DNA of 64,000 nucleotides from Escherichia coli (GTDB taxonomy: Bacteria; Pseudomonadota; Gammaproteobacteria; Enterobacterales; Enterobacteriaceae), in NCBI RefSeq assembly GCF_003019035.1, contig NZ_CP027447.1. One strand, 5' to 3'. Below the pieces are notes generated by a model. It was not told the DNA's origin. It was given only the letters and a program-made list of their open reading frames with translations, and did no database searches. Each line of letters starts with the position of its first letter. Within the stretch, counting starts at the first letter, position 1. Shown here one piece after another: positions 20,602 to 52,827 of this stretch. Both the position numbers and the translations under genes were made by a program.

Positions 20602-20707
20602 CGTTCGCATTGTGAGCGACAAGATAATTGCGCGGCATTGTCCATGCAAAACGCCCCAATAGCAGCAACTATTGGGGCGTAAAACTCGGTCGGACTCACT
20701 TAACCTG

Positions 20708-20793
20708 ATATGCGTGCCTTCCGAAGTAAATCAAAATGTGCGTCGTATATTTTATTGCTTACACGCACCTCTGTAAAGGCACGCATATTTTTC
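20708..20793 (+). terminator. Long hairpin (13-bp perfect stem, nested 6-bp inner stem) followed by T-run; attenuator or terminator
   Basis: ATATGCGTGCCTT (20708-20720) pairs with AAGGCACGCATAT (20776-20788), then TTTTT; lies between the promoter and the GTG start at 20810. Confidence 0.4.
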
Positions 20794-20809
20794 CTATGAG
20801 GTAAATAAA

Positions 20810-21079: not shown

Positions 21080-21087
21080 TACTTTTG

Positions 21088-21112
21088 AAGCGCCGATAAG
21101 GCGCTTTTTTTG
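21088..21112 (+). terminator. Rho-independent terminator
   Basis: AAGCGCC-loop-GGCGCTT stem followed by TTTTTTT directly after stop at 21079. Confidence 0.6.
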
Positions 21113-21565
21113 TTTGCACGATAGTGCACAAGTTTGCACAATTTTTTTGAACGACTTTTTGTACTTCCGGCCCGCGTGGTGGCTGGATCCGTCAAGGATC
21201 CGTACGTGCACAAAAATACGCGTTTTTTCTGCGCGCAGGTGACGGGGGAACAGCCCGCGTTTCAGGGGGTAAATAGCATTCCCTTAACGATGTCGCAGCG
21301 ACATGACAGAATGGCCGTATTTCTCACGCTGAGCGTGAAAAATACGTGAGGGATTCTGCTTTGATGGGGTGAAAGGTAAGGCCGTCAAAATCGCACTGAG
21401 GCGGCGAGAACATGCAGTCAGCGCAGTGGGATTGCGTAAGAGTCTGACCGTCGATGATGGCAATAAGCAGGAAAGCGTCGTGAAATTATCTGACTGATAC
21501 AGGAGCTGGAGAGTCGGGGCATAAATTTTTTATGCCCCGGCGAAGCAGCAGACAAGCGAAGCGCG

Positions 21566-22612
21566 TCAGGATGTGGGCTGGGTATCTAACAGTGCGTAAG
21601 GGTTAAAGCGGATCACCTCTTCGCCAAGCCAGTCATTGATGTGCTTCATGGCCTCCATGACGGGCATCAGCTCGTTAATTGCGTAAACCCGCGCGGCCTT
21701 CTCCACATCACCAAACGCACTTTTTTCGCCCGGCATCGCCCCCATCAGTTGCGGCGGAACGCGGTGCGCAGCCAGCACATCATCACGGGATGCCGCCTTA
21801 ACATTCATGAACTCATCTTTTGCGGTGATCTGCTGGAACGGCAAAATTTGCACCCCCTCTTTGCCCCCGTTGGGCGCATGAATGAGCACGTTTTTAAACG
21901 CACCACCACCACGTGCCCCCTGTAGCGTTTCTTTCAGGGAGTCCATGCTTTCGCGGTTTACCTGCGCTGCACCGATGTAGATGATGCACCCGGCGTGGGA
22001 TCCGTTGTCGTAGTACAGTTTTCTGAACATGTCCGCTGAATGAGAAAGGCTGGCCGAGAGTAATGCGCCAAGATATTCCGGCATGCCGTAGATTTCCTGG
22101 TTAATATCCGGATTCATCAGGTGGCACACTTTGCCAGGACGAAACTGGAACGCGTCCTTGCCATCCTGCACATACCACCATGATTCAAGATCGCTTCCGC
22201 GTCGCATGTATTTCGCCAGGGCGTGCCGTAATTTAAGCGGTTCGCCGAGCATATTGCTTCGAAGCTCAAGGAATGCGTTACCGAACACAAACCAGTCCAG
22301 CGCCAGCGCCGAGAAATCCTGCCGGGAAAGCAGCGGGTGCGGGATGTAGCAACCGAGTAATACATTGCGCTTAAAGTAAAGCGCAGACTGATGCCAGGAC
22401 GTTTGCCGGGCAGCTCTTGCCAGACCGTACCAGTCCACCGGGGTTTCATACCACCGCCCGTTATCAGCACAGTACATATTGTCCAGCAGGTCATGCCCGG
22501 TCAGGCGATAAGGACCATCAAATGTGAATGCACTGAGCGATGATTCTTTCCTGAGCGCATCAGCGAGATCAATGCGTGAACTCATGCGCACTTTTTTATT
22601 TTTTCTGCTCAT
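21566..22612 (-). CDS. Portal protein (P2 gpQ-like)
   Basis: 348 aa; position and size as P2 Q, co-oriented and coupled with terminase gene. Confidence 0.9.
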   Translation of the reverse strand: MSRKNKKVRMSSRIDLADALRKESSLSAFTFDGPYRLTGHDLLDNMYCADNGRWYETPVDWYGLARAARQTSWHQSALYFKRNVLLGCYIPHPLLSRQDFSALALDWFVFGNAFLELRSNMLGEPLKLRHALAKYMRRGSDLESWWYVQDGKDAFQFRPGKVCHLMNPDINQEIYGMPEYLGALLSASLSHSADMFRKLYYDNGSHAGCIIYIGAAQVNRESMDSLKETLQGARGGGAFKNVLIHAPNGGKEGVQILPFQQITAKDEFMNVKAASRDDVLAAHRVPPQLMGAMPGEKSAFGDVEKAARVYAINELMPVMEAMKHINDWLGEEVIRFNPYALLDTQPTS

Positions 22613-24363
22613 CAGAACTCCATAACCGTGAAACGCTCGTTTTCTCCTTCGCCGCCAATCGGTTCGTTAATGACAGCAAGCATGGTTGCCCACGCAAGGT
22701 CGCCGTGGCTGATCCCCCTCGCTCGGTCCGTTTCGTAAGTGATAAAGCCGCCCGGTGTTTTCACCTTACGCACGGCGTTAAAGGCCGCGACCAGCTCGCG
22801 TTCGGCGCGATCGTATTCCCACCGCCCGGCACGCATTATTTGCAGCATTTTCAGTACCAGCGACCGTTTTGATGACAGCGTGAAGGTGTACGGAATAGCA
22901 GCAGGGAAAAACCGCTTCACTATCTGATAAACAGCCTCCCCGTTCCCGCCCGTCACATCAATGCCGATGTGTTCCACGTTGTAGCGATACGTGAACTCTT
23001 CAATGACTCTGGCCTGTTCTTCAAACTCCAGCCCCTGAACGCGTCGCGTCTCCACCGTTCGAAAACGGCCACCAGGAACAGCCGGAGGAACCACCACGGA
23101 CACAGCGCCGCTGTCGCCGTTGCCACTACTGCCGTTTGCGTCATACCCAATCCATACCGGACGATTCCCCATCGGGCGGGGAGCAAAAGGTTTCCAGTCT
23201 TTCCAGTCGTCGTATCCGTCAACACCACAGCCAATCAGGATATTCAGGTTAAATGCCGATTCCCCTTCGCGGACAAACTCACACATATAGAGATTGAGGA
23301 ACTCGTCTTCGGTGTTTTCATCACGAATTTCATCAATATCGGTGTGTTTCCAGCCGTGATTAACCACATCTTCCAGCGTGACAATTTGCCGCCACGTCCG
23401 GTCAGGGCAGATAAGCCCGTTATGCAGCGTTTTCCAGTCCACAGAAAAACGCTGGCGTTTATGCGTGGCCTTTTTCTCGTTCCAGCGGTCGCCGTTCCAG
23501 TAGGCGTATGCCTCGTGCGTTTCGGTGGATGGCGTGGAGAAGTAGGTGCGCCGCAGTCCGCTGAGGGTTGCCATAGCGCCAGCCACCTTGCGCAGTTCAG
23601 CAAAGCGACTGACCCAGAAAAATTCATCAAAATAAAAATTGCCCGTATAGGACTGTGCCGACGCAGCAGAAGTGCCGAGAAAATGCAGCTCTGCGCCGTT
23701 GGAGAGGATGATTTTATCACCCCCTTTCAGCTCCACATCAACTTCAGCCGCGGCCTTCTGAATAATGCTTTTAAACTGGAACGCCTGACGACGCGACGCA
23801 GACAAAAAAATCTGGTTACGCTGGTAAGGTTGCGCCACATCGTCACGCAGCGCCATCAGCAGCGCTTCCTGTGCAAAATACCAGGTCGCCCCAATCTGTC
23901 GGGATTTCAGGATCATCCTGTTACGTATCCCGGCTTCCCTGCAAAGGGTCAGGGAGTCAAACCAGCCCCGCTGATGCCACTCCAGCCTGCTGATGATTTT
24001 TTCCCGCAGTGCGGCAATCTGTTCCGGCGTGAAATGATTTTTGAGTTTTTTCGCCCGGCCTTTCTTTCCTGCGGCCATCACATCCGGCTGGCCATCATGC
24101 AGCTTTTTAAGCTGCCGGGTCAGCAGGTCTATTTCCTTAAAGTCACCGCCTGTTTTATTCTGTTTTTCAGTAAGCTGGATGAGGCGCGCATCGATGGACT
24201 GCGTGACACGCTGCACGGGTGGCGTTTCATCCCACTGGTCACGTTTTTTCCACGCATAAATCGTGTTCGGGTTTATTCCCATCAGACGTGATATTTCTGC
24301 GGGCGGATAACCCTGCCAGTAAAGTTGCCGCGCACGCTGGCGCACAAAAGCGTCCTGAATCAT
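22612..24363 (-). CDS. Terminase large (ATPase) subunit (P2 gpP-like)
   Basis: 583 aa; P-Q leftward operon divergent from capsid operon as in P2. Confidence 0.9.
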   Translation of the reverse strand: MIQDAFVRQRARQLYWQGYPPAEISRLMGINPNTIYAWKKRDQWDETPPVQRVTQSIDARLIQLTEKQNKTGGDFKEIDLLTRQLKKLHDGQPDVMAAGKKGRAKKLKNHFTPEQIAALREKIISRLEWHQRGWFDSLTLCREAGIRNRMILKSRQIGATWYFAQEALLMALRDDVAQPYQRNQIFLSASRRQAFQFKSIIQKAAAEVDVELKGGDKIILSNGAELHFLGTSAASAQSYTGNFYFDEFFWVSRFAELRKVAGAMATLSGLRRTYFSTPSTETHEAYAYWNGDRWNEKKATHKRQRFSVDWKTLHNGLICPDRTWRQIVTLEDVVNHGWKHTDIDEIRDENTEDEFLNLYMCEFVREGESAFNLNILIGCGVDGYDDWKDWKPFAPRPMGNRPVWIGYDANGSSGNGDSGAVSVVVPPAVPGGRFRTVETRRVQGLEFEEQARVIEEFTYRYNVEHIGIDVTGGNGEAVYQIVKRFFPAAIPYTFTLSSKRSLVLKMLQIMRAGRWEYDRAERELVAAFNAVRKVKTPGGFITYETDRARGISHGDLAWATMLAVINEPIGGEGENERFTVMEF

Positions 24364-24517
24364 TGCTCCCCCTGAGTAATTACAGGAAGATTACCCGCGC
24401 GCGAAACTGTTCTCCTTAACCCCCTGTTCTGGCCGTTTTCTTACAACAAAAGCCCTTTGTATCAGCCTGTTACGCTTTGCCATCATGACTGAAGAACCAG
24501 TCAGAGGGGCAAAAACT

Positions 24518-25354
24518 ATGGCTAATGAAAAAAAGACATCCCGCAAAAAGTTTCGCGTGGCTGTCTCCGGATCAACTGTTGATGGCCGTGAAATCAGTCC
24601 GGTGCATCTGCGTGAAGCCGCCGAGAACTTCAACCCGGATGTTTACGCTGCCCGCGTGAACGTTGAGCACTATCTCTCGCCATGCCCGTCAAGCGAATTT
24701 TCCGCAATGGGCGATGTCACCGCACTGAGTACGGAAGACATTACGGAAGGTCCGCTGGCCGGACGTACTGCGCTGTATGCAGAAATCGAACCGACCGAGC
24801 GCATGAAGCAGCTTGTCGCGGACGGCAAGAAAATCTATTCCAGTATCGAACTGCACCCGCAGTTCTCCGTTAACGGGCGCGCCTATCTGGTCGGGCTGGC
24901 GATGACCGACACCCCGGCAAGCCTGGGCACTGAGCGCCTGAAATTCACGGCACAGCAACGTCAGGCGGTAATGACGTTCAACAGTATCCAGGGTGAAGCG
25001 CCGCTTATTTCCGAAGCCATCGAGTCTGAAATCATCGAAATGGCAGAACAACGCCAGGAAGAAGGCACCCAGTGGTTTAACCGCGTAATGGGGATTATTG
25101 GCCGTGGCCGCAAAGCGGATGACGCCAGTTTTTCCCGTATTCAGGAAGCGGTGGAAGGCGTCGCAACGTCACAGGCCGACATTATCGACCGTTTTAATGT
25201 GCTGGAAACCCGCCATCAGCAGGACAGCCAGAAAATTACGTCACTGACCACAGAGCTGGCAGCACTGAAGGAAAAACTGCGCACGCAGGACGGCGATCCG
25301 CAGAACCGGTTCACCGCAACAGGTGCAGCCTCCGACCAGCTGGCTGACTTCTGA
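24518..25354 (+). CDS. Capsid scaffolding protein (P2 gpO-like)
   Basis: start at MANEKK with upstream GAGGGG; first gene of rightward capsid operon. Confidence 0.85.
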   Translation: MANEKKTSRKKFRVAVSGSTVDGREISPVHLREAAENFNPDVYAARVNVEHYLSPCPSSEFSAMGDVTALSTEDITEGPLAGRTALYAEIEPTERMKQLVADGKKIYSSIELHPQFSVNGRAYLVGLAMTDTPASLGTERLKFTAQQRQAVMTFNSIQGEAPLISEAIESEIIEMAEQRQEEGTQWFNRVMGIIGRGRKADDASFSRIQEAVEGVATSQADIIDRFNVLETRHQQDSQKITSLTTELAALKEKLRTQDGDPQNRFTATGAASDQLADF

Positions 25355-25377
25355 TAAGACAAAGGAGCAAATTTTTT

Positions 25378-26430
25378 ATGAATCTGGTGATGTCAGATAT
25401 TACCCGCAACAAGCTGGGTTGCTATATGGCGCAGCAGGCGTCGCTTAATAATATTCCGGTTTCCGCACTGGTATCGCGATTTACCGTGGAACCCTCGGTG
25501 CAGCAGCGTTTTGAAAACGCCTCAAAGGAAAGCACCGAATTTACAAAAAGAATTAACGTGATCGGCGTGACCGACCAGAAAGGCGAAAAAATCCTCCCGG
25601 ACACCACCGGGCCAATTGCACGCACGAATACCAGTTATGACGGCACAAAACGCCGTAACCCGAATAACGTGGTTGATCTGAAAAACCGCAAATACCAGTG
25701 CGAACAGGTGAACTACGACACGTTTATTTCATATCCGCAGCTTGATGCCTGGGCGGCACATCCTGATTTTCAGTCCCGCATCAGCGCACAGATTGCCCGA
25801 CAGGTGGCGCTTGACCGCATCATGATCGGTTTCAACGGCACGTCTCACGCGGATGAGTCCAACTTCAGCACCAACAAGCTGCTTCAGGACGTTAACGTGG
25901 GATGGCTGGAGCACATCAGAACCGACGCCAGCGAACGCGTTATGAATGACGTGACGCTGACCTCCCGCAACATGGACAACACCGTGGCGCACGCGGGTAA
26001 GTATGCGAACGCTGATGCACTGGTACAGGACGCGCGTTCATCCCTGCTGGATGAATGGCACAAGGAAGCTGACGACCTTGTGGTGATTATGGGGCGCAAC
26101 CTGTTTAACTCGCTGCGTCTGCCCGTGCTGAACAGCATCAGCGGCCAGAATCCCAATGCGGAATTACTTGCCGGGCAGCTCATCCTGTCATCGCGCACCA
26201 TTGGCGGGCTGGGCGTGTTCCTTGCGCCGTTCTTCCCGGATGCAACGATGCTGATCACCTCGTTCAACAACCTGTCGATTTACTGGCAGAAAGGTTCAAT
26301 GCGTCGCCTGATGAAAGACGAGCCGGAATACAACCGCATCGCCACCTACCAGTCCATCAATGACGCTAATGTCGTTGAAGACTATGGCAAGTGCGCGATG
26401 GTCACTGGCCTGAAGTTCGCCGACAGCTAA
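25378..26430 (+). CDS. Major capsid protein (P2 gpN-like)
   Basis: 350-aa ORF (true start may be an internal Met); RFTVEPSV...RINV motifs as in P2 N. Confidence 0.9.
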   Translation: MNLVMSDITRNKLGCYMAQQASLNNIPVSALVSRFTVEPSVQQRFENASKESTEFTKRINVIGVTDQKGEKILPDTTGPIARTNTSYDGTKRRNPNNVVDLKNRKYQCEQVNYDTFISYPQLDAWAAHPDFQSRISAQIARQVALDRIMIGFNGTSHADESNFSTNKLLQDVNVGWLEHIRTDASERVMNDVTLTSRNMDNTVAHAGKYANADALVQDARSSLLDEWHKEADDLVVIMGRNLFNSLRLPVLNSISGQNPNAELLAGQLILSSRTIGGLGVFLAPFFPDATMLITSFNNLSIYWQKGSMRRLMKDEPEYNRIATYQSINDANVVEDYGKCAMVTGLKFADS

Positions 26431-26475
26431 TCAACTCACGGCGGGCATCATGCCCGCCAGTAACGGAGAGAACAA

Positions 26476-27276
26476 ATGATTACTCCTGCACAGCAACACT
26501 GGCAGAACGTGATGGCACAGCGCGCAGGCCGGGCGAATGAAGGCGTGGACCACGCCGCGCGTACCGCGCATGAAGAGGTGCTGTATCGTCTGCGTCTGGC
26601 ACAGGCCCGGCTTAAGGGCGTACAGGCCAGAAGCGCGAAAGCCGCCATCAAAAAAGAGTTGTTGCCGGATTTTTCCGGCTGGATTGAGGGAACGCTGGAG
26701 GCTGACGGCGGGCAGCAGGATGAAGTGATTGCCACGCTGATGGTGTGGGCGATTGACTGTGGCGATCTTCCGCTTGCGCTGCGTATCGGCGCGTATGTGG
26801 TCCGTCACAACCTCATCATGCCGGATAACTTTGGCCGTACTGCTGCCACGGTACTGACCGAAGAAATCTGTAATCCGGTACTGACGCAGGCCGGGACGGA
26901 TGCCGACGCGGATTTGTCCGCCTTTATCGAACCACTGGACACCCTCCGGGAGATTGTCACCGACCAGGACATGCCGGACGAAGTGCGCGCCAAATTATGC
27001 AAAGCGTGCGCCTTTGCCCGCCGTGGCCTGAGTGATGCGGACAGCATGGCCCTGTCACTGAAGCTGCTGCGCGAAGCAATGCACCTGAACCCGAACGCAG
27101 GTGTGAAACGCGAGATTGCAACCCTTTCCCGCGCCCTGAAAAAAGCCGATTCCGCAGCCGCACCAGAAGACGCCAGCGCACAGCAGGCGCAGGACGAAAG
27201 CAGCAAAAGTAAAAAGACAACGCGGAAGCCTGCAACACGAAAAACCACCGCGACGCAGAAGGCGAAGCGCGGTTAA
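26476..27276 (+). CDS. Terminase endonuclease (small) subunit (P2 gpM-like)
   Basis: 266 aa; ELLP.F..W......L...GG.QD and DMPDEVRAKL resemble P2 M; basic C-terminal tail. Confidence 0.85.
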   Translation: MITPAQQHWQNVMAQRAGRANEGVDHAARTAHEEVLYRLRLAQARLKGVQARSAKAAIKKELLPDFSGWIEGTLEADGGQQDEVIATLMVWAIDCGDLPLALRIGAYVVRHNLIMPDNFGRTAATVLTEEICNPVLTQAGTDADADLSAFIEPLDTLREIVTDQDMPDEVRAKLCKACAFARRGLSDADSMALSLKLLREAMHLNPNAGVKREIATLSRALKKADSAAAPEDASAQQAQDESSKSKKTTRKPATRKTTATQKAKRG

Positions 27277-27368
27277 CGACTGACCCCGTCAGCGGGCGGC
27301 GTGCGCGGTGTTCCGGTTTGACTCCGTGACCGTTTACACCGCGCACCCACCGCCCGATTTTTTCAGGA

Positions 27369-27872
27369 GTGAACCCCATGAGTATGGTTGCCAGAACCAA
27401 CCCCGGACCCGCAGAGGACGACATCACCGATACCGATGATGGTGATACCCGTATTTCAGCGGGTGCATTCTGGCCGGATATTGTGCTGCGTGAACTGCGT
27501 CTGGCGGTACGACTGCCGGGGCGCGTGACCACCTCCCGCCTGCTGCATACCGCCACCGGAGCTGTGGCACACGTTACCCGCGAGCTGGAAGCATGGCAGC
27601 AGGAACAGCAGGCGGCTGGCCATCAGACGCTGGCCGATGTTCCGGCACCCGTAATTAACGGAGAAAGCGTCAATCTCTGGCACTGGCGCAATGCTGTTTA
27701 TACCGCCACACGCGCCCTGATTCTGGAGCGTTACCGCGATGCGGACACAACGGACAAGGGCGACCGCCGGGCGGACGCACTGGATATACAGACATCGGAT
27801 TTGTGGCGCGATGTGAGCTGGGCCATCTCTGACATTCTGTGCCGCCCGCGAATCTTTGCGGAGTTGTGCTGA
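27369..27872 (+). CDS. Head completion/stabilisation protein (P2 gpL-like)
   Basis: 167 aa, position after gpM. Confidence 0.8.
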   Translation: MNPMSMVARTNPGPAEDDITDTDDGDTRISAGAFWPDIVLRELRLAVRLPGRVTTSRLLHTATGAVAHVTRELEAWQQEQQAAGHQTLADVPAPVINGESVNLWHWRNAVYTATRALILERYRDADTTDKGDRRADALDIQTSDLWRDVSWAISDILCRPRIFAELC

Positions 27873-28072
27873 TGAAAGTGAAGGCACTGGAAGGCGACAC
27901 CGTGGATTCGCTCTGTTTCCGGTACTACGGCACGACGCAGGGCGTCACCGAAAAGGTGCTGGATGCCAACCCCGGACTCTGTCAGCAGGTATTTCTGGAC
28001 GCCGGGCAGGAAGTGGAGATGCCGGAGCCGGAGAAGAAGAAACGAGAAATGATTCAGTTGTGGGGGGAGTAG
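27872..28072 (+). CDS. Tail protein X (P2 gpX-like)
   Basis: 66 aa from MKVKALEGDTVDSLCFRYYG, resembles P2 X; ATG overlaps gpL stop. Confidence 0.7.
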   Translation: MKVKALEGDTVDSLCFRYYGTTQGVTEKVLDANPGLCQQVFLDAGQEVEMPEPEKKKREMIQLWGE

Positions 28073-28074
28073 CA

Positions 28075-28398
28075 GTGAGCACCATTCAAACAGGGATCAC
28101 AGAGCAGGTTATTGCGTGGCTCTTTGACCACCTGCCAACGGTGTATGCAGTAGGCGCGGCGGTCAGCATTTCCGCGCTGATGAGTCTTTATGACGGACGA
28201 ACACTGGTTCAGACCGTAACGGGATCGCTGGCGTGCGGCGTTCTTGCCATGGCCGTGGCCGGGTCGTTGCGCTTCTTCGGTTTTCCTGAAGATGCCGTGA
28301 CGTTTATTGGCGCATCAATCGGTTTTATGGGCGCAGAGAAAGCACGCGACAAGGTTATTGCAGCCTTTAATCGCAGGGTGAAGGAGAAGGACGAATGA
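28075..28398 (+). CDS. Holin (P2 gpY-like)
   Basis: about 107 aa from GTG, two or three TM segments, charged C-terminus; precedes endolysin. Confidence 0.55.
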   Translation: MSTIQTGITEQVIAWLFDHLPTVYAVGAAVSISALMSLYDGRTLVQTVTGSLACGVLAMAVAGSLRFFGFPEDAVTFIGASIGFMGAEKARDKVIAAFNRRVKEKDE

Positions 28399-28787
28399 GC
28401 AACACATTTAAATTCAGCAGCCGGAGCGAAAAGAATTTGCAGGGCGTAAATCCTGATCTGGTGAAAGTGACCCGACGGGCACTGGAAATTTCGGAAGTGG
28501 ATTTTGGTATCACCGAAGGGTTGCGCAGCCGTTACCGCCAGAAGCAACTTGTGGCCACAGGTAAGAGCCAGACCATGAACAGCCGCCACCTTACGGGGCA
28601 TGCCGTGGATGTTGTGGCTTATATCGGCAGCCAGGTGTCATGGGAATGGCCGCTGTACGAAAAAATCGCAGCAGCATTCAGACAGGCCAGCCGGGAGCTG
28701 AATATTCCGGTGGAATGGGGCGGCGACTGGAAGACCCTGAAAGACGGACCGCATTTTCAGTTGCCACACGGAGCCTATCCGGCATGA
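28395..28787 (+). CDS. Endolysin, peptidase M15-type (L-alanyl-D-glutamate peptidase-like)
   Basis: 130 aa with SRH...D...H zinc-peptidase arrangement; replaces the lysozyme K of P2. Confidence 0.8.
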   Translation: MSNTFKFSSRSEKNLQGVNPDLVKVTRRALEISEVDFGITEGLRSRYRQKQLVATGKSQTMNSRHLTGHAVDVVAYIGSQVSWEWPLYEKIAAAFRQASRELNIPVEWGGDWKTLKDGPHFQLPHGAYPA

Positions 28788-29311
28788 AGCTCTGGCCCAC
28801 GCTTGGCGTCGCTTTCCTTCTGATTGCCGGATGGGGAACATCCATGCGTCTGTCGTGGTCACTGGGCCGGGAGAACGCCAGAAACGAAGCGCAGGCCAGC
28901 GCCCTGAAAAGCACCGTCGACACCCTGAATATCATCAGCGCCGGGGTACAGGATATGCAGCAGGTGCTGGCGCAACTCCGCGTGGAAAATCAACAGAGAA
29001 ATCAGGACGGAGAGGCCAGACGTGAACAGCTACGCAACGATATTGCAAAAGATGAATGCGCCCACGCTTTGCCTGACGCTCGTTTTACTGACAGGTTGCG
29101 CAGGCACGCAGAACGCGCCACTGCCAGCGCCGTCAGTCCGGCTTATACCGCAGACGCTGACCATACCGGTAACGCCTCCCCCCCTTCCCTGACACTCCCA
29201 CATGGGGAAATCTCGGTATATGGGGCGACCGCCTTCTGGATGCACTGGAAACCTGTAACGCTGATAAACGGGCCATTGAATTACTGGAACAGCGCAGGCT
29301 GCAACGACTGA
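28784..29311 (+). CDS. Rz-like i-spanin
   Basis: start MKLWPTLGVAFLLIAG (N-terminal TM), coiled-coil-rich; ATG overlaps endolysin stop. Confidence 0.6.
   Translation: MKLWPTLGVAFLLIAGWGTSMRLSWSLGRENARNEAQASALKSTVDTLNIISAGVQDMQQVLAQLRVENQQRNQDGEARREQLRNDIAKDECAHALPDARFTDRLRRHAERATASAVSPAYTADADHTGNASPPSLTLPHGEISVYGATAFWMHWKPVTLINGPLNYWNSAGCND
29051..29191 (+). CDS. Rz1-like o-spanin lipoprotein, embedded in +1 frame of the i-spanin gene
   Basis: 46 aa, lipobox LLTGC, Pro-rich mature part; not in ORF track because under 60 aa. Confidence 0.45.
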
Positions 29312-29329
29312 ACAACGAGGATAACAACC

Positions 29330-29797
29330 ATGCTGAAAACTGATTCCCTGCGTGAAGCCATGACCCGTTCATGCCGATGGTGTCAGGCCAACCCGGAAAA
29401 ATTCACCATTTTCGTGGAGAGCGGCAACATTGAAACGACCGGAGAAACCCCATCGTTTGTTTACCACTATCAGATGGTGATGTTTGTCATGGATTACGCC
29501 GGAGAGCTGGACGACCTCACGCTGCCGCTGCTGGCGTGGTTATCCGAAAATCAGCCACAGTTGTTGCTCAATCCGGAGCGTAATCAGGACATCAAATTTT
29601 CTGCCGTTATCAATGACGATGACAGCGCCGATCTCCTGTTTACGCTCCCCCTGCGGGAACGCGTTCGCATCACGCGCAGCAGTCAGGGTACACCGCAGGC
29701 AGAACACCTGCCGGAGCCAAAACCCCGCCTGCCCTCTTCCGAAGGCGACTGGTCGCATGTATTCCAGGATGTGACGTGGAGTGAAAGCGATGGATAA
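29330..29797 (+). CDS. Tail completion protein R (P2 gpR-like)
   Basis: 155 aa, same length and position as P2 R. Confidence 0.8.
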   Translation: MLKTDSLREAMTRSCRWCQANPEKFTIFVESGNIETTGETPSFVYHYQMVMFVMDYAGELDDLTLPLLAWLSENQPQLLLNPERNQDIKFSAVINDDDSADLLFTLPLRERVRITRSSQGTPQAEHLPEPKPRLPSSEGDWSHVFQDVTWSESDG

Positions 29798-30425
29798 GGC
29801 ATTCATCCGCGTGGATAAAACCTTTGAGGCCATCCGCGACAGCCTGAATCAGCAGGCCATCAATAACATCGCCAGAAAGCTGGCACAGGATTTACGCCGC
29901 GCCCAGCAGGCGCGCATCCGGTCACAGAAAGCGCCAGACGGGACCGCATGGACACCACGCAGACGCCGCGCAACCCGGATACAGGAACGCATTCGCTTTA
30001 TCTGGAATAACGAAGCACGCACGCTGAAAAACTGGCATCACGACACGGGGAAATACGGGCGAACCATTACCGGGTGGGATGAGGATAAAAACAATATCCG
30101 CACGTTTTATCGGGATGACATCGACCGTTTTCTGGAAATACGCACCCGGCGCATCAACCAGGACAGCACAAAGCGCGTCCCCATGTTCGTAAAACTGCGC
30201 ACCGCCCGCTACCTGAAAGCCCGTGCAGATGCTTCCGGTGTGACGGTGGGTTACAGCGGCGTAGCCGCACGTATTGCCCGCGTTCATCAGTACGGTGAGC
30301 GCGATCAGGTTGCGCCGGGCATTTTCACCGATTACCCGGTACGTGAGCTGCTGGGTATCAGCCAGGCAGATGAGCGCCTGATTTATAACACGGTGCTGGG
30401 CCGGATTGCGGAGGCTGTACGGTGA
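29781..30425 (+). CDS. Tail completion / virion morphogenesis protein S (P2 gpS-like)
   Basis: position between R and V; basic N-terminal region. Confidence 0.75.
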   Translation: MKAMDKAFIRVDKTFEAIRDSLNQQAINNIARKLAQDLRRAQQARIRSQKAPDGTAWTPRRRRATRIQERIRFIWNNEARTLKNWHHDTGKYGRTITGWDEDKNNIRTFYRDDIDRFLEIRTRRINQDSTKRVPMFVKLRTARYLKARADASGVTVGYSGVAARIARVHQYGERDQVAPGIFTDYPVRELLGISQADERLIYNTVLGRIAEAVR

Positions 30426-31003
30426 GCGCAGAACTCATGCGACTGCTGAGCAATATCATCCGCACCGGGATCATCTCTGAAGTTGATGAGAAGTCCTGGC
30501 GCGTGCGCGTTCGCAGCGGCGAACTGGAAACAGGCTGGTTGCGCTGGAACACCACGCGCGCGGGAGCCTTCAATGTGTGGCTGCCGCCATCAGTGGGCGA
30601 ACAGGTGGTAATTGCCTGCATTGGCGGCAACCCGGAAACCGCCATGATAATTGGCAGCCTGTGGAGTGATGCCAATCCGGCCCCCGGCAAAAGCCTGAAA
30701 GAAATCGTGGTCAGCGCGCCGGATGGCGCGGTGTTCCGCTACGACGCGGACGCAGGCGCACTGAGCGCCAGCGGCATGAAAACGGCCACCCTGCAGGCAT
30801 CCGTCAGTGTGACACTGGACACACCTGTCGTGGAATGCACAGACCTTCTGAGAACAGCGACGCTTGACGTCACAAAAGGAGGAAAGATGAGCGGCAATAT
30901 CACGCACAGCGGCGGCAACTTCACCTCAAACGGCATTACCGTGCATACGCATAAACACGGTGGCGTGAAAGGCGGCAGCGATTCGACAGGAGGCCCGCAG
31001 TGA
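30422..31003 (+). CDS. Baseplate assembly protein V (spike)
   Basis: 193 aa; gpV-type OB-fold region; order V-W-J-I as in P2. Confidence 0.85.
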   Translation: MSAELMRLLSNIIRTGIISEVDEKSWRVRVRSGELETGWLRWNTTRAGAFNVWLPPSVGEQVVIACIGGNPETAMIIGSLWSDANPAPGKSLKEIVVSAPDGAVFRYDADAGALSASGMKTATLQASVSVTLDTPVVECTDLLRTATLDVTKGGKMSGNITHSGGNFTSNGITVHTHKHGGVKGGSDSTGGPQ

Positions 31004-31350
31004 CAACCCGCTACACAGGAATGAATCCGGACGGGACGGGAAACCTGAACGATATGGAGCACCTGAAACAGTCAGTCAGGGATATCCTGACCACCCCGCT
31101 GGCAAGCCGGGTTATGCGACGGGAATATGGCAGCCTTGTGCCTGATTTGATTGACGAACCCATGAATAACACCACGCGTCTGCAATGCATGAGTGCTGCC
31201 GTGATTGCGCTGACACGATGGGAACCCCGCATTGCCCTGGATGCCATCGACGTTGTCTGGAAAGCGGGAGGCCGCGCCGGGGTGACGCTGTCGGGCACTG
31301 TCATGCAGACCATGCAGAATGTTGAGTTAACCATCACGCTGAGGGAGTAA
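31000..31350 (+). CDS. Baseplate protein W (gpW/gp25 family)
   Basis: 116 aa, size and position match P2 W. Confidence 0.85.
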   Translation: MTTRYTGMNPDGTGNLNDMEHLKQSVRDILTTPLASRVMRREYGSLVPDLIDEPMNNTTRLQCMSAAVIALTRWEPRIALDAIDVVWKAGGRAGVTLSGTVMQTMQNVELTITLRE

Positions 31351-31353
31351 ATC

Positions 31354-32250
31354 ATGCCCGCCGTTGACCTTTCCCAGTTACCGGAACCCGCCATCATCGC
31401 GGAGCCTGACTTTGAGGCAATTCTGGCTGACACAAAGGCCATGATGATTGCGGCTTATCCCGCCGAACAGCGTGAAGCCGTCTCCGCCGCGCTGGAGCTG
31501 GAATCGGAACCCCTGAACGTTATCGCCCAGACAACAGCGTTTCGTGAAATGCTGTTACGCCAGCGGGTCAATGAGGGGGCACGCGCCTGCATGTTAAGCC
31601 ACAGCGCCGGGACAGACCTGGACAACCTCGCGGGCAATATGAACACAAAGCGCCTGACCATCACTCCGGCAACGGATACCACCGACGCAGTGATGGAAAG
31701 TGACACCTCGCTGAGACTGCGGGCGCAGCGGGCGTACGATGGCCTGAGTGTTGCTGGCCCGTCAGGTGCATACGAGTATTTTGCCCGCAGCGCCAGCGGT
31801 CTGGTGCGTGATGCGCGGGCTATCAGTCCGTCTCCGGCAAATGTGACGGTTTCCATCCTGTCCACTGAAGGCGACGGCACAGCAACGGAGGCGTTGCTTA
31901 ATACCGTTCGCGCCGTTCTGAATGCAGAGGATACCCGCCCGGTGGCCGACCGCCTTACTGTACAGAGCGCCAGCATCGTGACATGGCGGCTGAATGCAAA
32001 ACTGTACTTTTACCCCGGCCCGGAATCCGAACCTATTCTGGCCGCGGCTGAATCGTCGTTCAGGAAGTGGCTGGCTGAGCAGGGGCTTATCGGTCAGGAC
32101 GTGGCGTTGTCCGCCATTGCTGCCGCACTGCATGTGCACGGTGTGCAACGCGTGGAGATAATCGAACCCACACAGAATATGGCCATCAGCGACATACAGG
32201 CGGCGCGCTGTGAGTCATTCACCATCAGCGAAGGTGGGCGCAATGAGTAA
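31354..32250 (+). CDS. Baseplate protein J
   Basis: 298 aa, size and position match P2 J. Confidence 0.85.
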   Translation: MPAVDLSQLPEPAIIAEPDFEAILADTKAMMIAAYPAEQREAVSAALELESEPLNVIAQTTAFREMLLRQRVNEGARACMLSHSAGTDLDNLAGNMNTKRLTITPATDTTDAVMESDTSLRLRAQRAYDGLSVAGPSGAYEYFARSASGLVRDARAISPSPANVTVSILSTEGDGTATEALLNTVRAVLNAEDTRPVADRLTVQSASIVTWRLNAKLYFYPGPESEPILAAAESSFRKWLAEQGLIGQDVALSAIAAALHVHGVQRVEIIEPTQNMAISDIQAARCESFTISEGGRNE

Positions 32251-32851
32251 TTCGTTGTTACCACCATCAGCCAGCAATTTCATGCGTTGTGCCGAAGCCG
32301 TCGGAACACGCATTACAGACATTCCGGTAGACCTCAACACGCTGTGGTCGCCGGACACCTGCCCGGTGCATCTGCTGCCTTATCTCGCCTGGGCGTTTTC
32401 CGTTGACCGCTGGGATCGCAACTGGCCGGAAGAGACAAAGCGACAGGTGATTCGTGATGCATGGCTGATACACCGACACAAAGGGACCATCAGCGCACTG
32501 CGAAGAGCCGTGGAGCCTCTCGGCTACCTGATTGAAGTAAAGGAGTGGTGGCAACTCAACGAGGAGCCGGGAACATTTCGCATTGTTGTCGGAGTACTTG
32601 ATCAGGGCATCACCGATGAAATGTATCAGGAACTTGAGCGCCTTATTGCGGATGCAAAACCAGTAAGTCGCCATCTGACAGGGCTGGCGATCAGCCTGAG
32701 TGTGAACGGAAAGATTTTCGTTGGTACGGGATGCTATCACGGCGATGCCCTGACGGTTTATCCCTACACCCCGGAGTCCATTATTGTCGAAGGGGATTAT
32801 TTCCCTGCCCCGGCCATTCATTTAATTGATAATCTGAGAGTAAACGCATGA
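32243..32851 (+). CDS. Baseplate/tail protein I
   Basis: start at MSNSLLPP overlapping gpJ stop; position matches P2 I. Confidence 0.8.
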   Translation: MSNSLLPPSASNFMRCAEAVGTRITDIPVDLNTLWSPDTCPVHLLPYLAWAFSVDRWDRNWPEETKRQVIRDAWLIHRHKGTISALRRAVEPLGYLIEVKEWWQLNEEPGTFRIVVGVLDQGITDEMYQELERLIADAKPVSRHLTGLAISLSVNGKIFVGTGCYHGDALTVYPYTPESIIVEGDYFPAPAIHLIDNLRVNA

Positions 32852-34353
32852 CAGTGAAATACTACGCCATTCTGACTAATCAGGGCGCGGCACGACTGGC
32901 TAACGCGACGATGCTCGGCAGTAAGCTGAATCTGACGCAAATGGCCGTTGGTGATGCAAATGGTGTGTTACCAACACCAGACCCTGCACAAACAAAACTG
33001 ATTAACCAGAAACGCATTGCACCGCTGAATCTTCTGAGTGTTGACCCTAACAATCAGAGCCAGATTATTGCGGAACAAATCATCCCTGAAAACGAGGGAG
33101 GATTCTGGATCCGTGAGATTGGTCTTTATGATGATGAAGGCGTACTTATTGCGGTGGCAAACTGCCCGGAAACGTACAAACCGCAGTTGCAGGAAGGCAG
33201 TGGACGCACCCAGACTATCCGCATGATTCTGGTTGTCACGAACACCGAAGCCATCACGCTGAAAATCGACCCGTCAGTGGTTCTGGCAACCCGCAAATAT
33301 GTGGATGATAAAATCTCAGAGCACGAACAGTCACGACGTCACCCGGACGCCTCGCTGACCGTAAAAGGTTTTACTCAGTTAAGCAGTGCAATTAACAGTG
33401 AATCAGAAACACTGGCCGCAACACCGAAAGCGGTTAAGGCTGCATATGACCTGGCTAACAGGAAATATACCGCCCAGAACGCCACCACTACACAAAAAGG
33501 GATTGTTCAGCTCAGTAGCGCCACGAACAGCACGTCTGAAACGCTGGCAGCGACACCAAAAGCTGTTAAGGCGGTAATGGATGAAACGAACAAGAAAGCA
33601 CCATTAAACAGCCCGGCACTGACCGGAACGCCAACAACACCAACAGCGCCACAGGGGACTAATAATACCCAGATCGCAAGCACGGCTTTCGTTATGGCTG
33701 CGATTGCCGCACTTGTAGATTCGTCCCCTGATGCACTGAACACGCTGAACGAACTGGCTGCGGCGCTGGGCAATGACCCGAACTTTGCGACTACCATGAC
33801 TAACGCGCTTGCGGGTAAGCAATCGAAGGATGCCACCCTGACGGCGCTGGCGGAGCTTGCTACATCAGCAGATAAACTCCCATATTTTACAGGGGCAGAT
33901 CGTGCCGCGTTAACCGCGTTGACAAGTGTTGGACGTGCCATTCTTGGTAAAACCAGCACTCAGGGAGTTCTTGATTACCTTGGTTTGGGGGAAGGCTCTG
34001 CGCTGCCCGTTGGTGTACCTGTTCCATGGCCCTCAGCCACACCGCCAACGGGGTGGCTAAAATGTAACGGAGCAGCATTTTCTTCTGAAAAATACCCCAA
34101 ACTGGCAAAGGCTTACCCAACGTTAAAATTACCGGATTTACGGGGTGAGTTTATCCGTGGCTGGGATGATGGGCGCGGGATTGATGCGGGACGTACCCTG
34201 CTTTCTGGGCAGGATGGTACAAGTTTTTCTCATTACGGAGGTAATTTCGACATTGGGTCTGGTCATTCAATCAATAACTATGACCAAATTGTTTCTAACC
34301 AACCAGGCTTTTCCCGTTTTTCATTTGCGGGCCTTCACGAGGTGATGGGTTAA
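32848..34353 (+). CDS. Tail fibre protein H, constant region fused to a C-terminal cassette that carries a frameshift
   Basis: 501 aa; contains crossover site at 33968-33993 and the conserved GEGSALPVGVPVPWP...RGEFIRGWDDGRG block; ORF ends before the conserved cassette terminus, which is out of frame at 34364-34411. Confidence 0.85.
   Translation: MTVKYYAILTNQGAARLANATMLGSKLNLTQMAVGDANGVLPTPDPAQTKLINQKRIAPLNLLSVDPNNQSQIIAEQIIPENEGGFWIREIGLYDDEGVLIAVANCPETYKPQLQEGSGRTQTIRMILVVTNTEAITLKIDPSVVLATRKYVDDKISEHEQSRRHPDASLTVKGFTQLSSAINSESETLAATPKAVKAAYDLANRKYTAQNATTTQKGIVQLSSATNSTSETLAATPKAVKAVMDETNKKAPLNSPALTGTPTTPTAPQGTNNTQIASTAFVMAAIAALVDSSPDALNTLNELAAALGNDPNFATTMTNALAGKQSKDATLTALAELATSADKLPYFTGADRAALTALTSVGRAILGKTSTQGVLDYLGLGEGSALPVGVPVPWPSATPPTGWLKCNGAAFSSEKYPKLAKAYPTLKLPDLRGEFIRGWDDGRGIDAGRTLLSGQDGTSFSHYGGNFDIGSGHSINNYDQIVSNQPGFSRFSFAGLHEVMG
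33968..33993 (+). repeat. Invertase crossover site 1 (hix/gix-like 26 bp), inside H
   Basis: TTCTTGATTACC-TT-GGTTTGGGGGAA; left half resembles hix TTCTTGAAAACC; right half shared with five other sites. Confidence 0.7.
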
Positions 34354-34404
34354 TTATGTAACCATTCGTCCTCGTAATATTGCGTTTAATTACATCGTAA
34401 GGGC

Positions 34405-34430
34405 AGCATAAAAACGTTGGTTTGGGGAAG
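34405..34430 (+). repeat. Invertase crossover site 2
   Basis: AGCATAAAAACG-TT-GGTTTGGGGAAG, same orientation as site 1. Confidence 0.65.
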
Positions 34431-34897
34431 GCTCTGCGCTGCCCGTTGGTGTACCTGTTCCATGGCCCTTAGAAACACCGCCAACGGGGTGGCTAAAATG
34501 TAACGGAGCAGCATTTTCTTCTGAAAAGTACCCCAAGCTGGCAAAAGCCTACCCCACCAATAAATTACCGGATTTACGGGGTGAATTTATTCGTGGCTGG
34601 GATGATGGGCGAGGAATTGATGCAGCACGCGCTTTATTGAGCATTCAAACCGGGATGTTGGAAAAACACCGCCATATTGTTGTAGCTAACGATGGATATG
34701 ACACAAAGGATGAATGGGAGTTGGCCACGATTTTCAAAAAAACATATACACAAGGCAGGGGGCTTGATGCCACAAATACAGGAGGGAGTTTGATTCCATC
34801 ACCAACGCTTCATTCACGAGGAAGTATTGGTAACACAGGTGGTAGTGAAACCCGCCCCCGCAATATTGCATTTAACTATATCGTGAGGGCGGCTTAG
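34431..34897 (+). other. Promoterless alternative tail-fibre C-terminal cassette (cB)
   Basis: begins with conserved GEGSALPVGVPVPWP... block right after site 2, ends with conserved ...ETRPRNIAFNYIVRAA; no start codon of its own. Confidence 0.6.
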
Positions 34898-34903
34898 TTA
34901 TAT

Positions 34904-35515
34904 TCAACTGGCTGCTGCCAGTGGTATTTCCGGCCAGTTGATATCTGATGCCATGTTTATATCCATTGCGTTCAGTGCGTCTATATAATCCAGCACGGCG
35001 TTAAGCCGGGTGGTTTCTGCCTGCGTCAACTTCCGCCCGGCCCGCAACTTCAACTGAATCAGACTAATGGAAGCCATTGCAGTATCAATCAGCGACTGGC
35101 GCTGTGTTTCTGCCGCTTCTACTGCGGCGCTATGCTGTGCCTCGGTATCCGTCACCCATTTTTCACCATCCCATTTATCGTATGGTGTTAACGGGGCGAT
35201 AGTGGTTGTATTTTTCGGGTAGTCACCCAGCGTCGTGATTTCTTCGGTGTTTCCCGTATCAGTGCTATAGACGGTTTCACCACGATGATCTGGCGTATAC
35301 TCCCATGAATTTAAATTCTCCGAACGGCGGATAGCATAGCCCGCTTTATGTGCGCCCGGGGCATCTAAACAGGAATTTGCCGGAATACCGACACCCGCAG
35401 CAAGATATTCAGTTGATTCGGAAATATATTCCCGTGTCTCACCATCATAGTTATAAACGACGATGTTTCCTGCCTGTACGGCAATAAGGTCATCATTTAA
35501 TATCGCGTTATTCAT
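34904..35515 (-). CDS. Tail fibre assembly protein (Tfa; P2 gpG / Mu U family)
   Basis: 203 aa; typical Tfa size and composition; directly follows cassette c1 on the minus strand. Confidence 0.85.
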   Translation of the reverse strand: MNNAILNDDLIAVQAGNIVVYNYDGETREYISESTEYLAAGVGIPANSCLDAPGAHKAGYAIRRSENLNSWEYTPDHRGETVYSTDTGNTEEITTLGDYPKNTTTIAPLTPYDKWDGEKWVTDTEAQHSAAVEAAETQRQSLIDTAMASISLIQLKLRAGRKLTQAETTRLNAVLDYIDALNAMDINMASDINWPEIPLAAAS

Positions 35516-35964
35516 TATGCGGTTCTCACAATATAATTGAAGGCAATATTGCGTGGGCGGGTTTCATTCCCCTCTGAGGATTCCGTTCTGTATTGACTGG
35601 TAAATCTACCGTTAATTGCACCTTGCCGGACGGCGTTATCTGTCGACAACAGACTATCCCCTCCTTTGTCATTTGGCACCAGTACCGTGTTATCCCACGC
35701 ATCCCATGACCGAATATTATGATAATGACTTCCTGTTAACCACCCCTGCATGCTTAAGATGCCCCTTCCGGCATCCACCCCGCGCCCATCATCCCAGCCA
35801 CGAATAAATTCACCCCGTAAATCCGGTAATTTTAACGTTGGGTAAGCCTTTGCCAGTTTTGGATACTTTTCAGAAGAAAATGCTGCTCCGTTACATTTTA
35901 GCCACCCAGTTGGCGGCGTGGCTGAGGGCCATGGAACGGGCACACCAACGGGCAGCGCAGAGCC
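35515..35964 (-). other. Alternative tail-fibre C-terminal cassette c1 (minus strand)
   Basis: GEGSALPVGVPVPWP...RGEFIRGWDDGRGVDAGR..., variable middle, ends ...ETRPRNIAFNYIVRTA. Confidence 0.65.
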
Positions 35965-35990
35965 TTCCCCCAAACCAACGTTTTCATGCT
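35965..35990 (-). repeat. Invertase crossover site 3
   Basis: minus strand AGCATGAAAACG-TT-GGTTTGGGGGAA. Confidence 0.65.
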
Positions 35991-36442
35991 GCCCTTACGA
36001 TGTAATTAAACGCAATGTTATGGGGGCGTGTTTCAGATGCTGTGCGAACTGAGCGAGAGGCGTCGAATGTCCATACAGAAGCACCATATCCTTCAATGAT
36101 CTCAGTTGGTTGTAAGCCTACTGATAATATAGAGTCAGTTTGACTAAATGGTCCTGAATTAAACGCATCTTTAAAAAGCTGAGTACGCCCAAAAGTGCCA
36201 ACTATATTCTGAATAGCGTCAGACTGTGCAGACAGTAGGTTGCGCCCATTATCAACGCCCCGTCCGTCATCCCAGCCGCGAATAAATTCGCCCCGTAAAT
36301 CCGGTAATTTATTGGTGGAGTAGGCCTTTGCCAGATTGGGGTACATTTCAGAAGAAAATGCTGCGCCGTTACATTTCAGCCACCCCGTTGGCGGCGTGGC
36401 TGAGGGCCATGGAACGGGCACACCAACGGGCAGCGCAGAGCC
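35984..36442 (-). other. Alternative tail-fibre C-terminal cassette c2
   Basis: same conserved 5' block, distinct variable region, ends ...RPHNIAFNYIVRAA. Confidence 0.65.
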
Positions 36443-36468
36443 TTCCCCCAAACCAACGTTTTTATGCC
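36443..36468 (-). repeat. Invertase crossover site 4
   Basis: minus strand GGCATAAAAACG-TT-GGTTTGGGGGAA. Confidence 0.65.
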
Positions 36469-36881
36469 GCCCTTACGATGTAATTAAATGCGATATTTCG
36501 CGGCCTGACAGCAACAAAATTTATACCATCACCTACAGAGTTACTGGTGAAATTAAATCGTGAAAATCCTGGCTGATTTCCGACGATGCCATCATGAAAA
36601 TTAATTGCGTGCCCCGCACCATCACCTATATTTCCGGCACGCTGAGAAAAATTTGTAGCCTCTTGGCTGCTTAATAATGCTCGCCCATTGTCCACACCTC
36701 GTCCATCATCCCAACCTCGAATAAATTCGCCCCGTAGATCCGGCAATTTATTGGTGGGGTAAACCTTTGCCAGATTTGGGTACTTTTCAGAAGAAAATGC
36801 TGCTCCGTTACATTTCAGCCACCCCGTTGGCGGTGTGGCTGAGGGCCATGGAACAGGTACACCAACGGGCAGCGCAGAGCC
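36462..36881 (-). other. Alternative tail-fibre C-terminal cassette c3
   Basis: same conserved 5' block, distinct variable region, ends ...VRPRNIAFNYIVRAA; the cassette currently fused to H looks like a frameshifted relative of this one. Confidence 0.65.
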
Positions 36882-36907
36882 TTCCCCCAAACCAACGTTT
36901 TCATGCG
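36882..36907 (-). repeat. Invertase crossover site 5
   Basis: minus strand CGCATGAAAACG-TT-GGTTTGGGGGAA. Confidence 0.65.
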
Positions 36908-37398
36908 GCTCTTACGATGTAATTAAACGCAATGTTACGAGGACGGTTTTCGTTTGCAGTTGGAACAATTCTTGAAGCATCAAGGCCAATCACTTTTGGG
37001 TAAACAGCGCCATCTGTTCTTTCTGTCACCATACTTCTGACTAAGGAGAAATAACTATTGTTCGTTGAGGGGCTCAAAGGCACTACTGCCCCCTTAAACG
37101 AACCTACTGATTCCCATATTGAATAATTTTCGGTGTTTACAGTCTTGAACTCACCATAGATATTACGTATGGCATCGCCCTGAGCGGATAATATTGCCCT
37201 CCCCGTATCCATACCACGTCCGTCATCCCAGCCACGAATAAATTCACCCCGTAAATCCGGTAATTTTAACGTTGGGTAAGCCTTTGCCAGTTTTGGATAC
37301 TTTTCAGAAGAAAATGCTGCTCCGTTACATTTTAGCCACCCAGTTGGCGGCGTGGCTGAGGGCCACGGAACGGGCACACCAACGGGCAGTGCAGAGCC
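36901..37398 (-). other. Alternative tail-fibre C-terminal cassette c4
   Basis: same conserved 5' block, longest variable region, ends ...NRPRNIAFNYIVRAA. Confidence 0.65.
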
Positions 37399-37424
37399 TT
37401 CCCCCAAACCAACGTTTTCGTTTT
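37399..37424 (-). repeat. Invertase crossover site 6
   Basis: minus strand AAAACGAAAACG-TT-GGTTTGGGGGAA. Confidence 0.6.
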
Positions 37425-37478
37425 TATCCCTACCTATACCAACTATGTATTTTTCACGAAACAAAGAGGATGTTTTTT

Positions 37479-38078
37479 ATGCAAATTGGCTATATTCGTG
37501 TGTCAACAAATGACCAGAACACGGATTTACAACGCAATGCACTGAACTGCGCAGGATGTGAACTGATTTTTGAAGATAAAATCAGCGGAACGAAATCAGC
37601 CAGACCGGGATTGAAAAAACTGCTCAGAACGCTATCAGAAGGAGATACGCTGGTTGTCTGGAAGCTGGACAGACTGGGCAGAAGTATGAAACACCTGATT
37701 ACGCTTATTGAGGAATTGCGGGAAAAAGGTGTTAATTTCCGTAGTCTGACGGACAGCATTGACACATCAACACCCATGGGGCGTTTCTTTTTTCACGTCA
37801 TGGGGGCTTTAGCCGAAATGGAACGTGAATTAATTGTAGAGCGTACACTGGCCGGACTGGCAGCAGCACGCGCACAAGGACGCATTGGCGGACGTCGCCC
37901 GAAGTTGACAAAAGAACAACACGAGCAAATAGCGAGGCTGATTAAAAACGGTCATGACAGGAAACAACTGGCGATCATTTACGACATCGGCATATCGACG
38001 ATTTATCGTTATCACCCTGTAGGCGATATACAGGCTGAAGAAACAACCAGGCAGACTCAGGAAAATGAAAACCGCTAA
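37479..38078 (+). CDS. Serine DNA invertase (Hin/Gin/Cin/Pin family)
   Basis: 199 aa; N-terminal GYIRVSTNDQ catalytic Ser motif, resolvase core, C-terminal HTH; AGAGGA Shine-Dalgarno. Confidence 0.9.
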   Translation: MQIGYIRVSTNDQNTDLQRNALNCAGCELIFEDKISGTKSARPGLKKLLRTLSEGDTLVVWKLDRLGRSMKHLITLIEELREKGVNFRSLTDSIDTSTPMGRFFFHVMGALAEMERELIVERTLAGLAAARAQGRIGGRRPKLTKEQHEQIARLIKNGHDRKQLAIIYDIGISTIYRYHPVGDIQAEETTRQTQENENR

Positions 38079-38098
38079 TCTGACCATTAGCGGTTTTG
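38066..38098. terminator. Bidirectional hairpin terminator between convergent invertase and gpU genes
   Basis: AAACCGCTAAT-loop-ATTAGCGGTTT with flanking T/A runs. Confidence 0.5.
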
Positions 38099-38104
38099 CG
38101 TTAA

Positions 38105-38599
38105 TCAAAACAGCCCTTTAACGGAGCTGGCCGCGCTGTTAAGGGATGATGTGACCTTATCTTTGAAGCCGGACAGCATATCACTGAACGATGAGGATTG
38201 CAGGCGCTCCCGCAAATCCTCATCACAGCGTTCAAGAGTCAGTGAAAATTCTATCTTTTTCGCCTTACCGTAGCGATCAAACTCGGAGCGGGTCGTATTC
38301 GTTTCAGTCAGTACATACATGCCGTAAATCTGCCCGACACCATCAATCAGAGGCCAGGGGCGTCCTGTATATGCCTGCGTGGTCAGCAGCGAAAGCGACA
38401 CTTCGCCACCTGTAATTTCAGGATAAAGCACGCCAGAAAGCACGATGCGATCATCACCTGCACCGATATACTGCCAGCTTGCTGAGCGGTTTACGCGCTC
38501 ATTTTTCACATGCCGCCAGCTTTTGTTTTGCTGTAACTGCTGATGCGGCAGTGTGCGCAGCTCAAAAACAAACATGCCGTAGATCATCATCATGACCAT
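38105..38599 (-). CDS. Tail protein U (P2 gpU-like)
   Basis: 164 aa; FVFELRTLPHQQLQ N-terminus resembles P2 gpU. Confidence 0.8.
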   Translation of the reverse strand: MVMMMIYGMFVFELRTLPHQQLQQNKSWRHVKNERVNRSASWQYIGAGDDRIVLSGVLYPEITGGEVSLSLLTTQAYTGRPWPLIDGVGQIYGMYVLTETNTTRSEFDRYGKAKKIEFSLTLERCDEDLRERLQSSSFSDMLSGFKDKVTSSLNSAASSVKGLF

Positions 38600-38605
38600 G
38601 ACTCC

Positions 38606-50754: not shown

Positions 50755-52827
<2,073 letters not shown>

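Follow-up and report, generated by a model that had tools for sequence, protein, structure and literature searches.

Three private single-G deletions around one cassette junction of a P2-family tail-fibre inversion switch in Escherichia coli

The tail-fibre gene H of a P2-family prophage in E. coli, as recorded in the window (the whole stretch of 64,000 nucleotides that was analysed), carries a premature stop, and its full reading frame returns when two single G residues are put back into the cassette that is joined to it. A third G is missing from the neighbouring crossover site, and none of the three deletions is found in any other record examined. We infer that they share one local cause and, by a modest balance of probability, favour an error of consensus or assembly at this junction over one clustered mutation in the strain itself.

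Anatomy of the switch and its prophage

The locus is a multiple-inversion tail-fibre switch of P2 gene H with six sites, of the Gin/Cin type and of an already known kind: an invertase gene lies adjacent, the crossover sites are inverted, and a constant 5' part is accompanied by alternative 3' parts for which isomers exist in relatives. Its features, with the prophage that contains them, are as follows.

10921-46903, no strand assigned: P2-family prophage, with a 20-bp direct repeat at either end
32848-34353, plus strand: tail-fibre gene H as written, 501 aa with a premature stop; constant part to about 33979
33968-33993, plus strand: crossover site A within H, TTCTTGATTACC TT GGTTTGGGGGAA, 12-2-12, undamaged
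33982-34411, plus strand: cassette c0, now joined to H, orthologue of a widespread 142-aa cassette
34329-34331, plus strand: first deletion, GGG, where orthologues have GGGG (or AGGG)
34347-34349, plus strand: second deletion, GGG, where all orthologues have GGGG
34349-34411, plus strand: conserved C-terminus VNYVTIRPRNIAFNYIVRAA with its stop, out of frame as written
34405-34430, plus strand: crossover site B, AGCATAAAAACG TT GGTTTGGGGAAG, right half-site short of one G (run 34424-34427)
34419-34897, plus strand: cassette c1, silent, of the 158/159-aa type, interior intact, off-frame relative to the codons of its own site; orthologues are 1 nt longer
34904-35515, minus strand: tail-fibre assembly protein, same orientation as c2; Pfam Caudo_TAP on identical products
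35515-35990, minus strand: cassette c2, 152 aa, intact; crossover site 35965-35990
35984-36468, minus strand: 155-aa cassette, intact; crossover site 36443-36468
36462-36907, minus strand: cassette c3, 142 aa, intact, paralogue of c0; crossover site 36882-36907
36901-37424, minus strand: cassette of the 168-aa type, intact, with an ORF that reaches upstream to 37464 (168/187 aa); crossover site 37399-37424
37479-38078, plus strand: serine DNA invertase, 199 aa, full length, gapless against that of strain F163

The six crossover sites of 26 bp follow a 12-2-12 layout with the core TT in all of them, two on the plus and four on the minus strand, and the right half GGTTTGGGGGAA is identical in five of the six, site B being the exception. 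The site within H presumably resembles hixL. Every cassette begins at such a 26-bp site and consists of a conserved start of 77 residues, a variable middle and the invariant end RPRNIAFNYIVRAA; the invariant P-N-AFNYIVR-A of these ends is the most conserved part across all cassette types. An intact relative of H (521 aa) contains the Pfam domains Phage_tail_fib, Phage_fiber_2 (twice) and Collar (PF07484). The invertase aligns with the Gin structures 4M6F and 3UJ3 over residues 2-184 (E about 1e-90), and its identity to P1 Cin is 73.9%; in an NCBIfam scan the protein scored below the curated cut-off of every family, and the fibre and assembly proteins gave zero matches. Note that in the cassette nearest to the invertase (36901-37464, minus strand) the ORF runs 19 codons upstream of the crossover site (MFREKYIVGIGRDKNENVGLGEGS...); this cassette could in principle be translated alone, without being joined to H.

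In relatives with the same set of cassettes, differing cassettes are found on H, in many different orders. The P2-like prophage of the EPEC strain E2348/69, among the nearest relatives in complete genomes and 96-98% identical over the late region (late genes 96-97%), possesses a tail-fibre shufflon of which four isomers co-exist within single clones (Goldberg et al. 2014, PMC4272514). There, too, this H has the c0-type cassette on it, followed by c1, the inverted assembly-protein gene with c2, and the invertase, but its three sites and four isomers compare with six sites and six cassettes in the window, and its H-c0 is intact (1566 nt) whereas that of the window has two 1-nt deletions. A Gin/Cin-like recombinase, 26-bp sites of the 12-2-12 type and a constant 5' part with exchangeable 3' parts are also common to the window and the systems Min of p15B, Cin of P1 and Gin of Mu. 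Min comprises six sites. Cassettes of the c0 type, about 92-97% identical, are further carried by P1-like plasmids whose size is about 93-102 kb. Unlike these three systems, the window has the P2 gene H as its constant gene and a P2-family chromosomal prophage as the host element, and only one of its cassettes has a co-inverting assembly-protein gene.

The 20-bp direct repeat TTTTCATCAACAAGGATTTT marks the two ends of the prophage (10921-10940 and 46884-46903), and the host DNA around the prophage is E. coli chromosome: both flanks (window 1-10940 and 46885-64000) match E. coli SCU-301 at 100.0% and without a gap over ~28 kb, and in that strain the site is empty. With 0 differences between these flanks over 28 kb, the prophage was gained or lost very recently relative to the divergence of the chromosomes. 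In the prophage of E2348/69 a pair of genes for an AAA ATPase and an S8 peptidase lies between the partition genes and the portal gene (locus L005, 11825-15108). The pair is evidently absent from the window (~20445-21566), where the alignment to that locus ends at 20445 and resumes at 21115, and its slot looks like one for variable cargo.

Position and effect of the deletions

As written, the H ORF terminates at 34353 with ...NQPGFSRFSFAGLHEVMG and a stop, and both the ORF list and direct reading bear out the early end, at 501 aa, that a sequence-only reading of this DNA had reported. That reading had also placed the conserved cassette terminus out of frame behind an in-frame stop, and rightly so, with a TGA at 34343-34345 in that frame; its start coordinate needs correction, however, as VNYVTIRPRNIAFNYIVRAA with its stop occupies 34349-34411 and 34364 is the start of IRPRN.... 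Its description of c0 as a relative of c3 with a small indel stands with respect to paralogy, but in place of a single indel there are two 1-nt deletions, and a third in the adjoining site. As c3 is only a paralogue (78% amino acid identity), the alignment with it that had been proposed was extended, and the indels were placed against the orthologous cassette in other E. coli: c0 (33982-34411) was aligned with the silent copy of F163, with the copy of CFS3292 that is on H and intact (521 aa), and with c3 of the window. Against the F163 copy c0 is identical except for two single-base gaps.

At the first of these, GCGGGGCC or GCAGGGCC has become GCGGGCC (G run 34329-34331, aligned as TTGC-GGGCC against GCGGGG or GCAGGG), and at the second GATGGGGTT has become GATGGGTT (G run 34347-34349, GAT-GGGTT against GATGGGG). 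A blastn comparison with three relatives revealed the third single-G deletion as a 1-nt gap at 34423-34426 (G run 34424-34427), 75 bp downstream, in the right half of site B, where GGTTTGGGGGAA is changed to GGTTTGGGGAAG at 34419-34430. Restoring both G residues of c0 in silico yields an intact H of 521 aa, while restoring only one, whichever it is, still leaves a stop at codon 504. H joined to c1 as written would stop at codon 395, and with the G restored it gives a protein of 537 aa. Two of the six alternative endings, c0 and c1, are thus unusable in this record.

The deletions lie -88, -70 and +7 bp from the core of site B, all within 98 bp, and they affect three of the four runs of at least four G found within about 90 bp of that core. 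From 21115 to 39308, over the late region and the remainder of the switch, comparison with relatives disclosed no other uncompensated private indel, save for the C run at 29178. With three of four nearby runs hit and no such indel elsewhere in that region, the clustering is not random.

The H product as written lacks the last 26 residues, including the conserved strand RPRNIAFNYIVRAA. In phmmer searches the cassette start and the last 13 residues align to the tip of T4 gp37 (PDB 2XGF; residues 5-119 and the last 13), and the conserved C-terminus of H falls on the C-terminal VKNIAFNYIVRLA of that tip. According to a published description (PMC12609058), the chain of the gp37 tip doubles back to the collar domain, which would account for a C-terminal strand that is conserved across all cassette types, and the lost segment is probably a structural part of the collar. 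In line with this likeness, intact H contains the Pfam Collar domain; in contrast to gp37, the cassettes are much shorter (142-169 aa), and c0 has no evident needle of repeated HxH motifs. An AlphaFold2 model of the cassette, computed from a 10-sequence alignment, reached a pLDDT of 37, too low for use. Judged from these alignments, the fibre encoded here would most likely not function.

A truncation that is tolerated or compensated, be it by translational frameshifting or as a shorter working fibre, is the least probable of all the explanations considered here, and we found no observation in its support. Compensation would call for two successive shifts in the same direction across GGG runs that have no recognisable slippery site, the 521-aa form has been kept in every relative examined, and the lost segment is both the most conserved part of all cassette types and the part that matches the C-terminal end of gp37. 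Programmed ribosomal frameshifting was rejected on similar grounds, as the relatives have one uninterrupted frame of 521 aa and two shifts would be needed here.

Intact copies in other genomes

Sister prophages were found by way of a distinctive LysB of 175 aa that is treated below. The one in GCA_012647285.1 equals the window from 18784 as far as crossover site A in H. Its switch is complete and differently arranged: c0 is silent and has both G residues, and the c1 site has five G. Apart from the two missing G residues, c0 is 100% identical to the copies in this sister and in F163, with zero substitutions. Over 12.8-15.2 kb the window is matched at 100.000% by three sister assemblies from short reads, which reach as far as the H crossover site, where the contigs of all three samples end.

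About 100 other copies of c0 were checked, base by base or by length, and all proved intact; 181 collection blocks with the exact intact product of 142 aa add to these. The c0 stretch is 2 nt longer than in the window in 60 of the 60 listed complete E. coli genomes that have the cassette, and no 100% match to the window form exists among 546 matching records. All 16 copies within 24 fetched loci are intact. Scans with a flexible pattern did not retrieve the deleted form from IMG/VR (12 of 12 matches intact) or from metagenomes (9 of 9 intact), a 38-mer spanning the double deletion had 0 matches among GTDB species representatives, and exact look-ups of the truncated 501-aa H and of the 122-aa silent form found neither on record. 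Searches with the truncated c1 products (86 and 80 aa) returned only contig-end fragments, a contig containing N and unrelated junctions, none of them with a G4 site, and this G4 form was met in 0 of 99 crossover sites in the 24 related loci.

Of those 99 sites, 98 are canonical. The sole odd one, near 3498 on the minus strand of locus L024 (ENA metagenome contig ERZ27278914 k141_11636), has lost one core T and reads AAAACG T GGTTTGGGGGAA; about 2.4 kb beside it are without called genes. A further irregularity was seen in F163 (NZ_OY754349.1, locus L001, 8525-9041), where the cassette beside the assembly-protein gene is annotated as frameshifted. The cause is a tandem duplication of 58 bp in the conserved 5' part and not a loss within a G run, and we did not accept it as backing for a recurrent process at such runs. 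Other kinds of cassette lesion, real or made by assembly, do occur in related switches.

These comparisons bear on the view, taken in the sequence-only reading, of a truncated fibre from a module parked on a decayed cassette. Truncation holds for the ORF as written, but neither decay nor parking does. A pseudogene would combine its lesions with substitutions and have them in common with related lineages; c0 has zero substitutions relative to the intact copies of F163 and of the same-lineage sister prophage, and its lesion is in no other record examined. That c0 and c1 are old pseudogene cassettes, which gathered independent frameshifts while silent, we regard as largely refuted already and as very improbable. 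Silent cassettes are unexpressed, so lesions can persist in them, and the relative F163 with its duplication has a frameshifted cassette as well. On the other hand, no substitution separates c0 from intact orthologues in 440 nt, the sister prophage is intact in spite of its identity from 18784 to the H crossover site, none of the three lesions recurs in any other record examined, and it would take a large coincidence for three independent events to fall within 98 bp in cassettes that only this isomer brings together.

Nor does the module appear parked, as the site in H and its four inverted partners are present together with a full-length invertase and four intact cassettes, relatives show many arrangements, and isomers are documented for E2348/69 (PMC4272514). 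Real lesions would not lock the switch either: with the H site and the four inverted sites intact, a single inversion would be enough to bring an undamaged cassette onto H. At site B, the altered half-site might lower recombination.

Origin of the deletions

As the deletions are private, come without substitutions and affect cassettes that are neighbours only in this isomer, they must have arisen together in this configuration. Independent neutral events are not credible, and one local event is required.

The reading that we favour, with a probability somewhat above one half, is a local error of consensus or assembly. In this switch a Gin/Cin-type invertase exchanges six alternative C-terminal cassettes at the 26-bp site in which the constant part of H ends. 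The recorded isomer has c0 on H and the three single-G deletions around the c0|c1 junction at site B, two of them truncating H-c0 and the third disabling c1 and altering one half-site. According to this proposal, the sequenced culture would have been a mixture of inversion isomers at this junction, where the error would have arisen. In long-read consensus sequences, loss of a single base in runs of G is a typical residual error. The missing G residues are the only differences from intact orthologues, and the lesions are private, with all three G residues present in a sister prophage that equals the window from 18784 to the H site. Isomer heterogeneity is documented at such loci (E2348/69, PMC4272514), and the sister short-read contigs stop at the H site. 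The caveat of sequencing error or heterogeneity that accompanied the sequence-only reading is thus the explanation now favoured. Against it stands the quality of the record elsewhere, which is exact over 15.2 kb at 100.000% against independent short-read assemblies and gapless over the 28 kb of flanks against SCU-301. Moreover, two of the three deletions fall in the unique variable part of c0, where short reads should polish correctly, and the C7 run at 29178-29184 has proved to be real, so that genuine homopolymer frameshifts do occur in this lineage.

This C run lies in the overlap of lysB and lysC (28784-29343) and is C7 in the window where four aligned relatives have C6. The stretch is 1 nt shorter in each of the 40 listed matches, out of 1040 matching complete E. 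coli records, among which no record reaches at least 99% identity. The additional C cuts the Rz1-like outer-membrane spanin LysC (start ATG at 29052, lipobox LLTGC) to 46 aa instead of about 96, and it also removes the stop of LysB, which extends to 29311 (175 aa). We considered C7 as a fourth sequence error and rejected this, as the exact 175-aa LysB is found in 81 blocks, short-read assemblies among them. C7 is therefore a genuine allele of this prophage lineage and not usable as a sign of poor sequence quality. In this lineage the final step of lysis may be impaired.

A possible alternative of distinctly lower probability is that the deletions are real and that this strain acquired all three in one clustered event at a time when c0 lay next to c1. 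It agrees with the accuracy of the assembly elsewhere and with the two lesions in unique sequence; the lesions lie on both sides of the site-B core, all three are -1 changes in G runs and three of the four runs of at least four bases near the site are hit. The lineage carries a real spanin frameshift besides, and may be drifting towards defectiveness. A candidate for such an event is a patch of error-prone repair synthesis after aborted cleavage by the invertase at site B, with -1 losses of the kind made by DNA polymerase IV. Losses of one base in G runs are typical of this polymerase, and DNA breaks are associated with mutagenesis. The allele is, however, in no independent record, related crossover sites give no direct sign of scars left by serine invertases (98 of 99 have the canonical form, and the odd one, on a metagenome contig, lacks a core T), and a consensus artefact accounts for the same pattern more simply. 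The specific proposition that the deletions are the real scar of a failed serine-invertase reaction, in which a double-strand break at the core was followed by error-prone repair, for instance by polymerase IV, with clustered frameshifts inside 100 bp as the outcome, we consider improbable, if slightly less so than gradual decay.

The record serves mainly as a warning: in any culture a multi-cassette inversion locus exists as a mixture of isomers, one assembled isomer is a snapshot, and small indels at inversion junctions call for a look at the reads before they are taken as biology. If the lesions are real, two of the six cassettes are dead, and with them two host-range options are lost, one crossover site is weakened, and the lysogen would release a fraction of fibre-defective particles, as this isomer would be tail-fibre-defective; the consequence would be minor and specific to the strain. 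Only the reading as an invertase scar would be of wider interest, for it would mean that programmed inversion is locally mutagenic and wears away the cassettes and sites of the switch itself.
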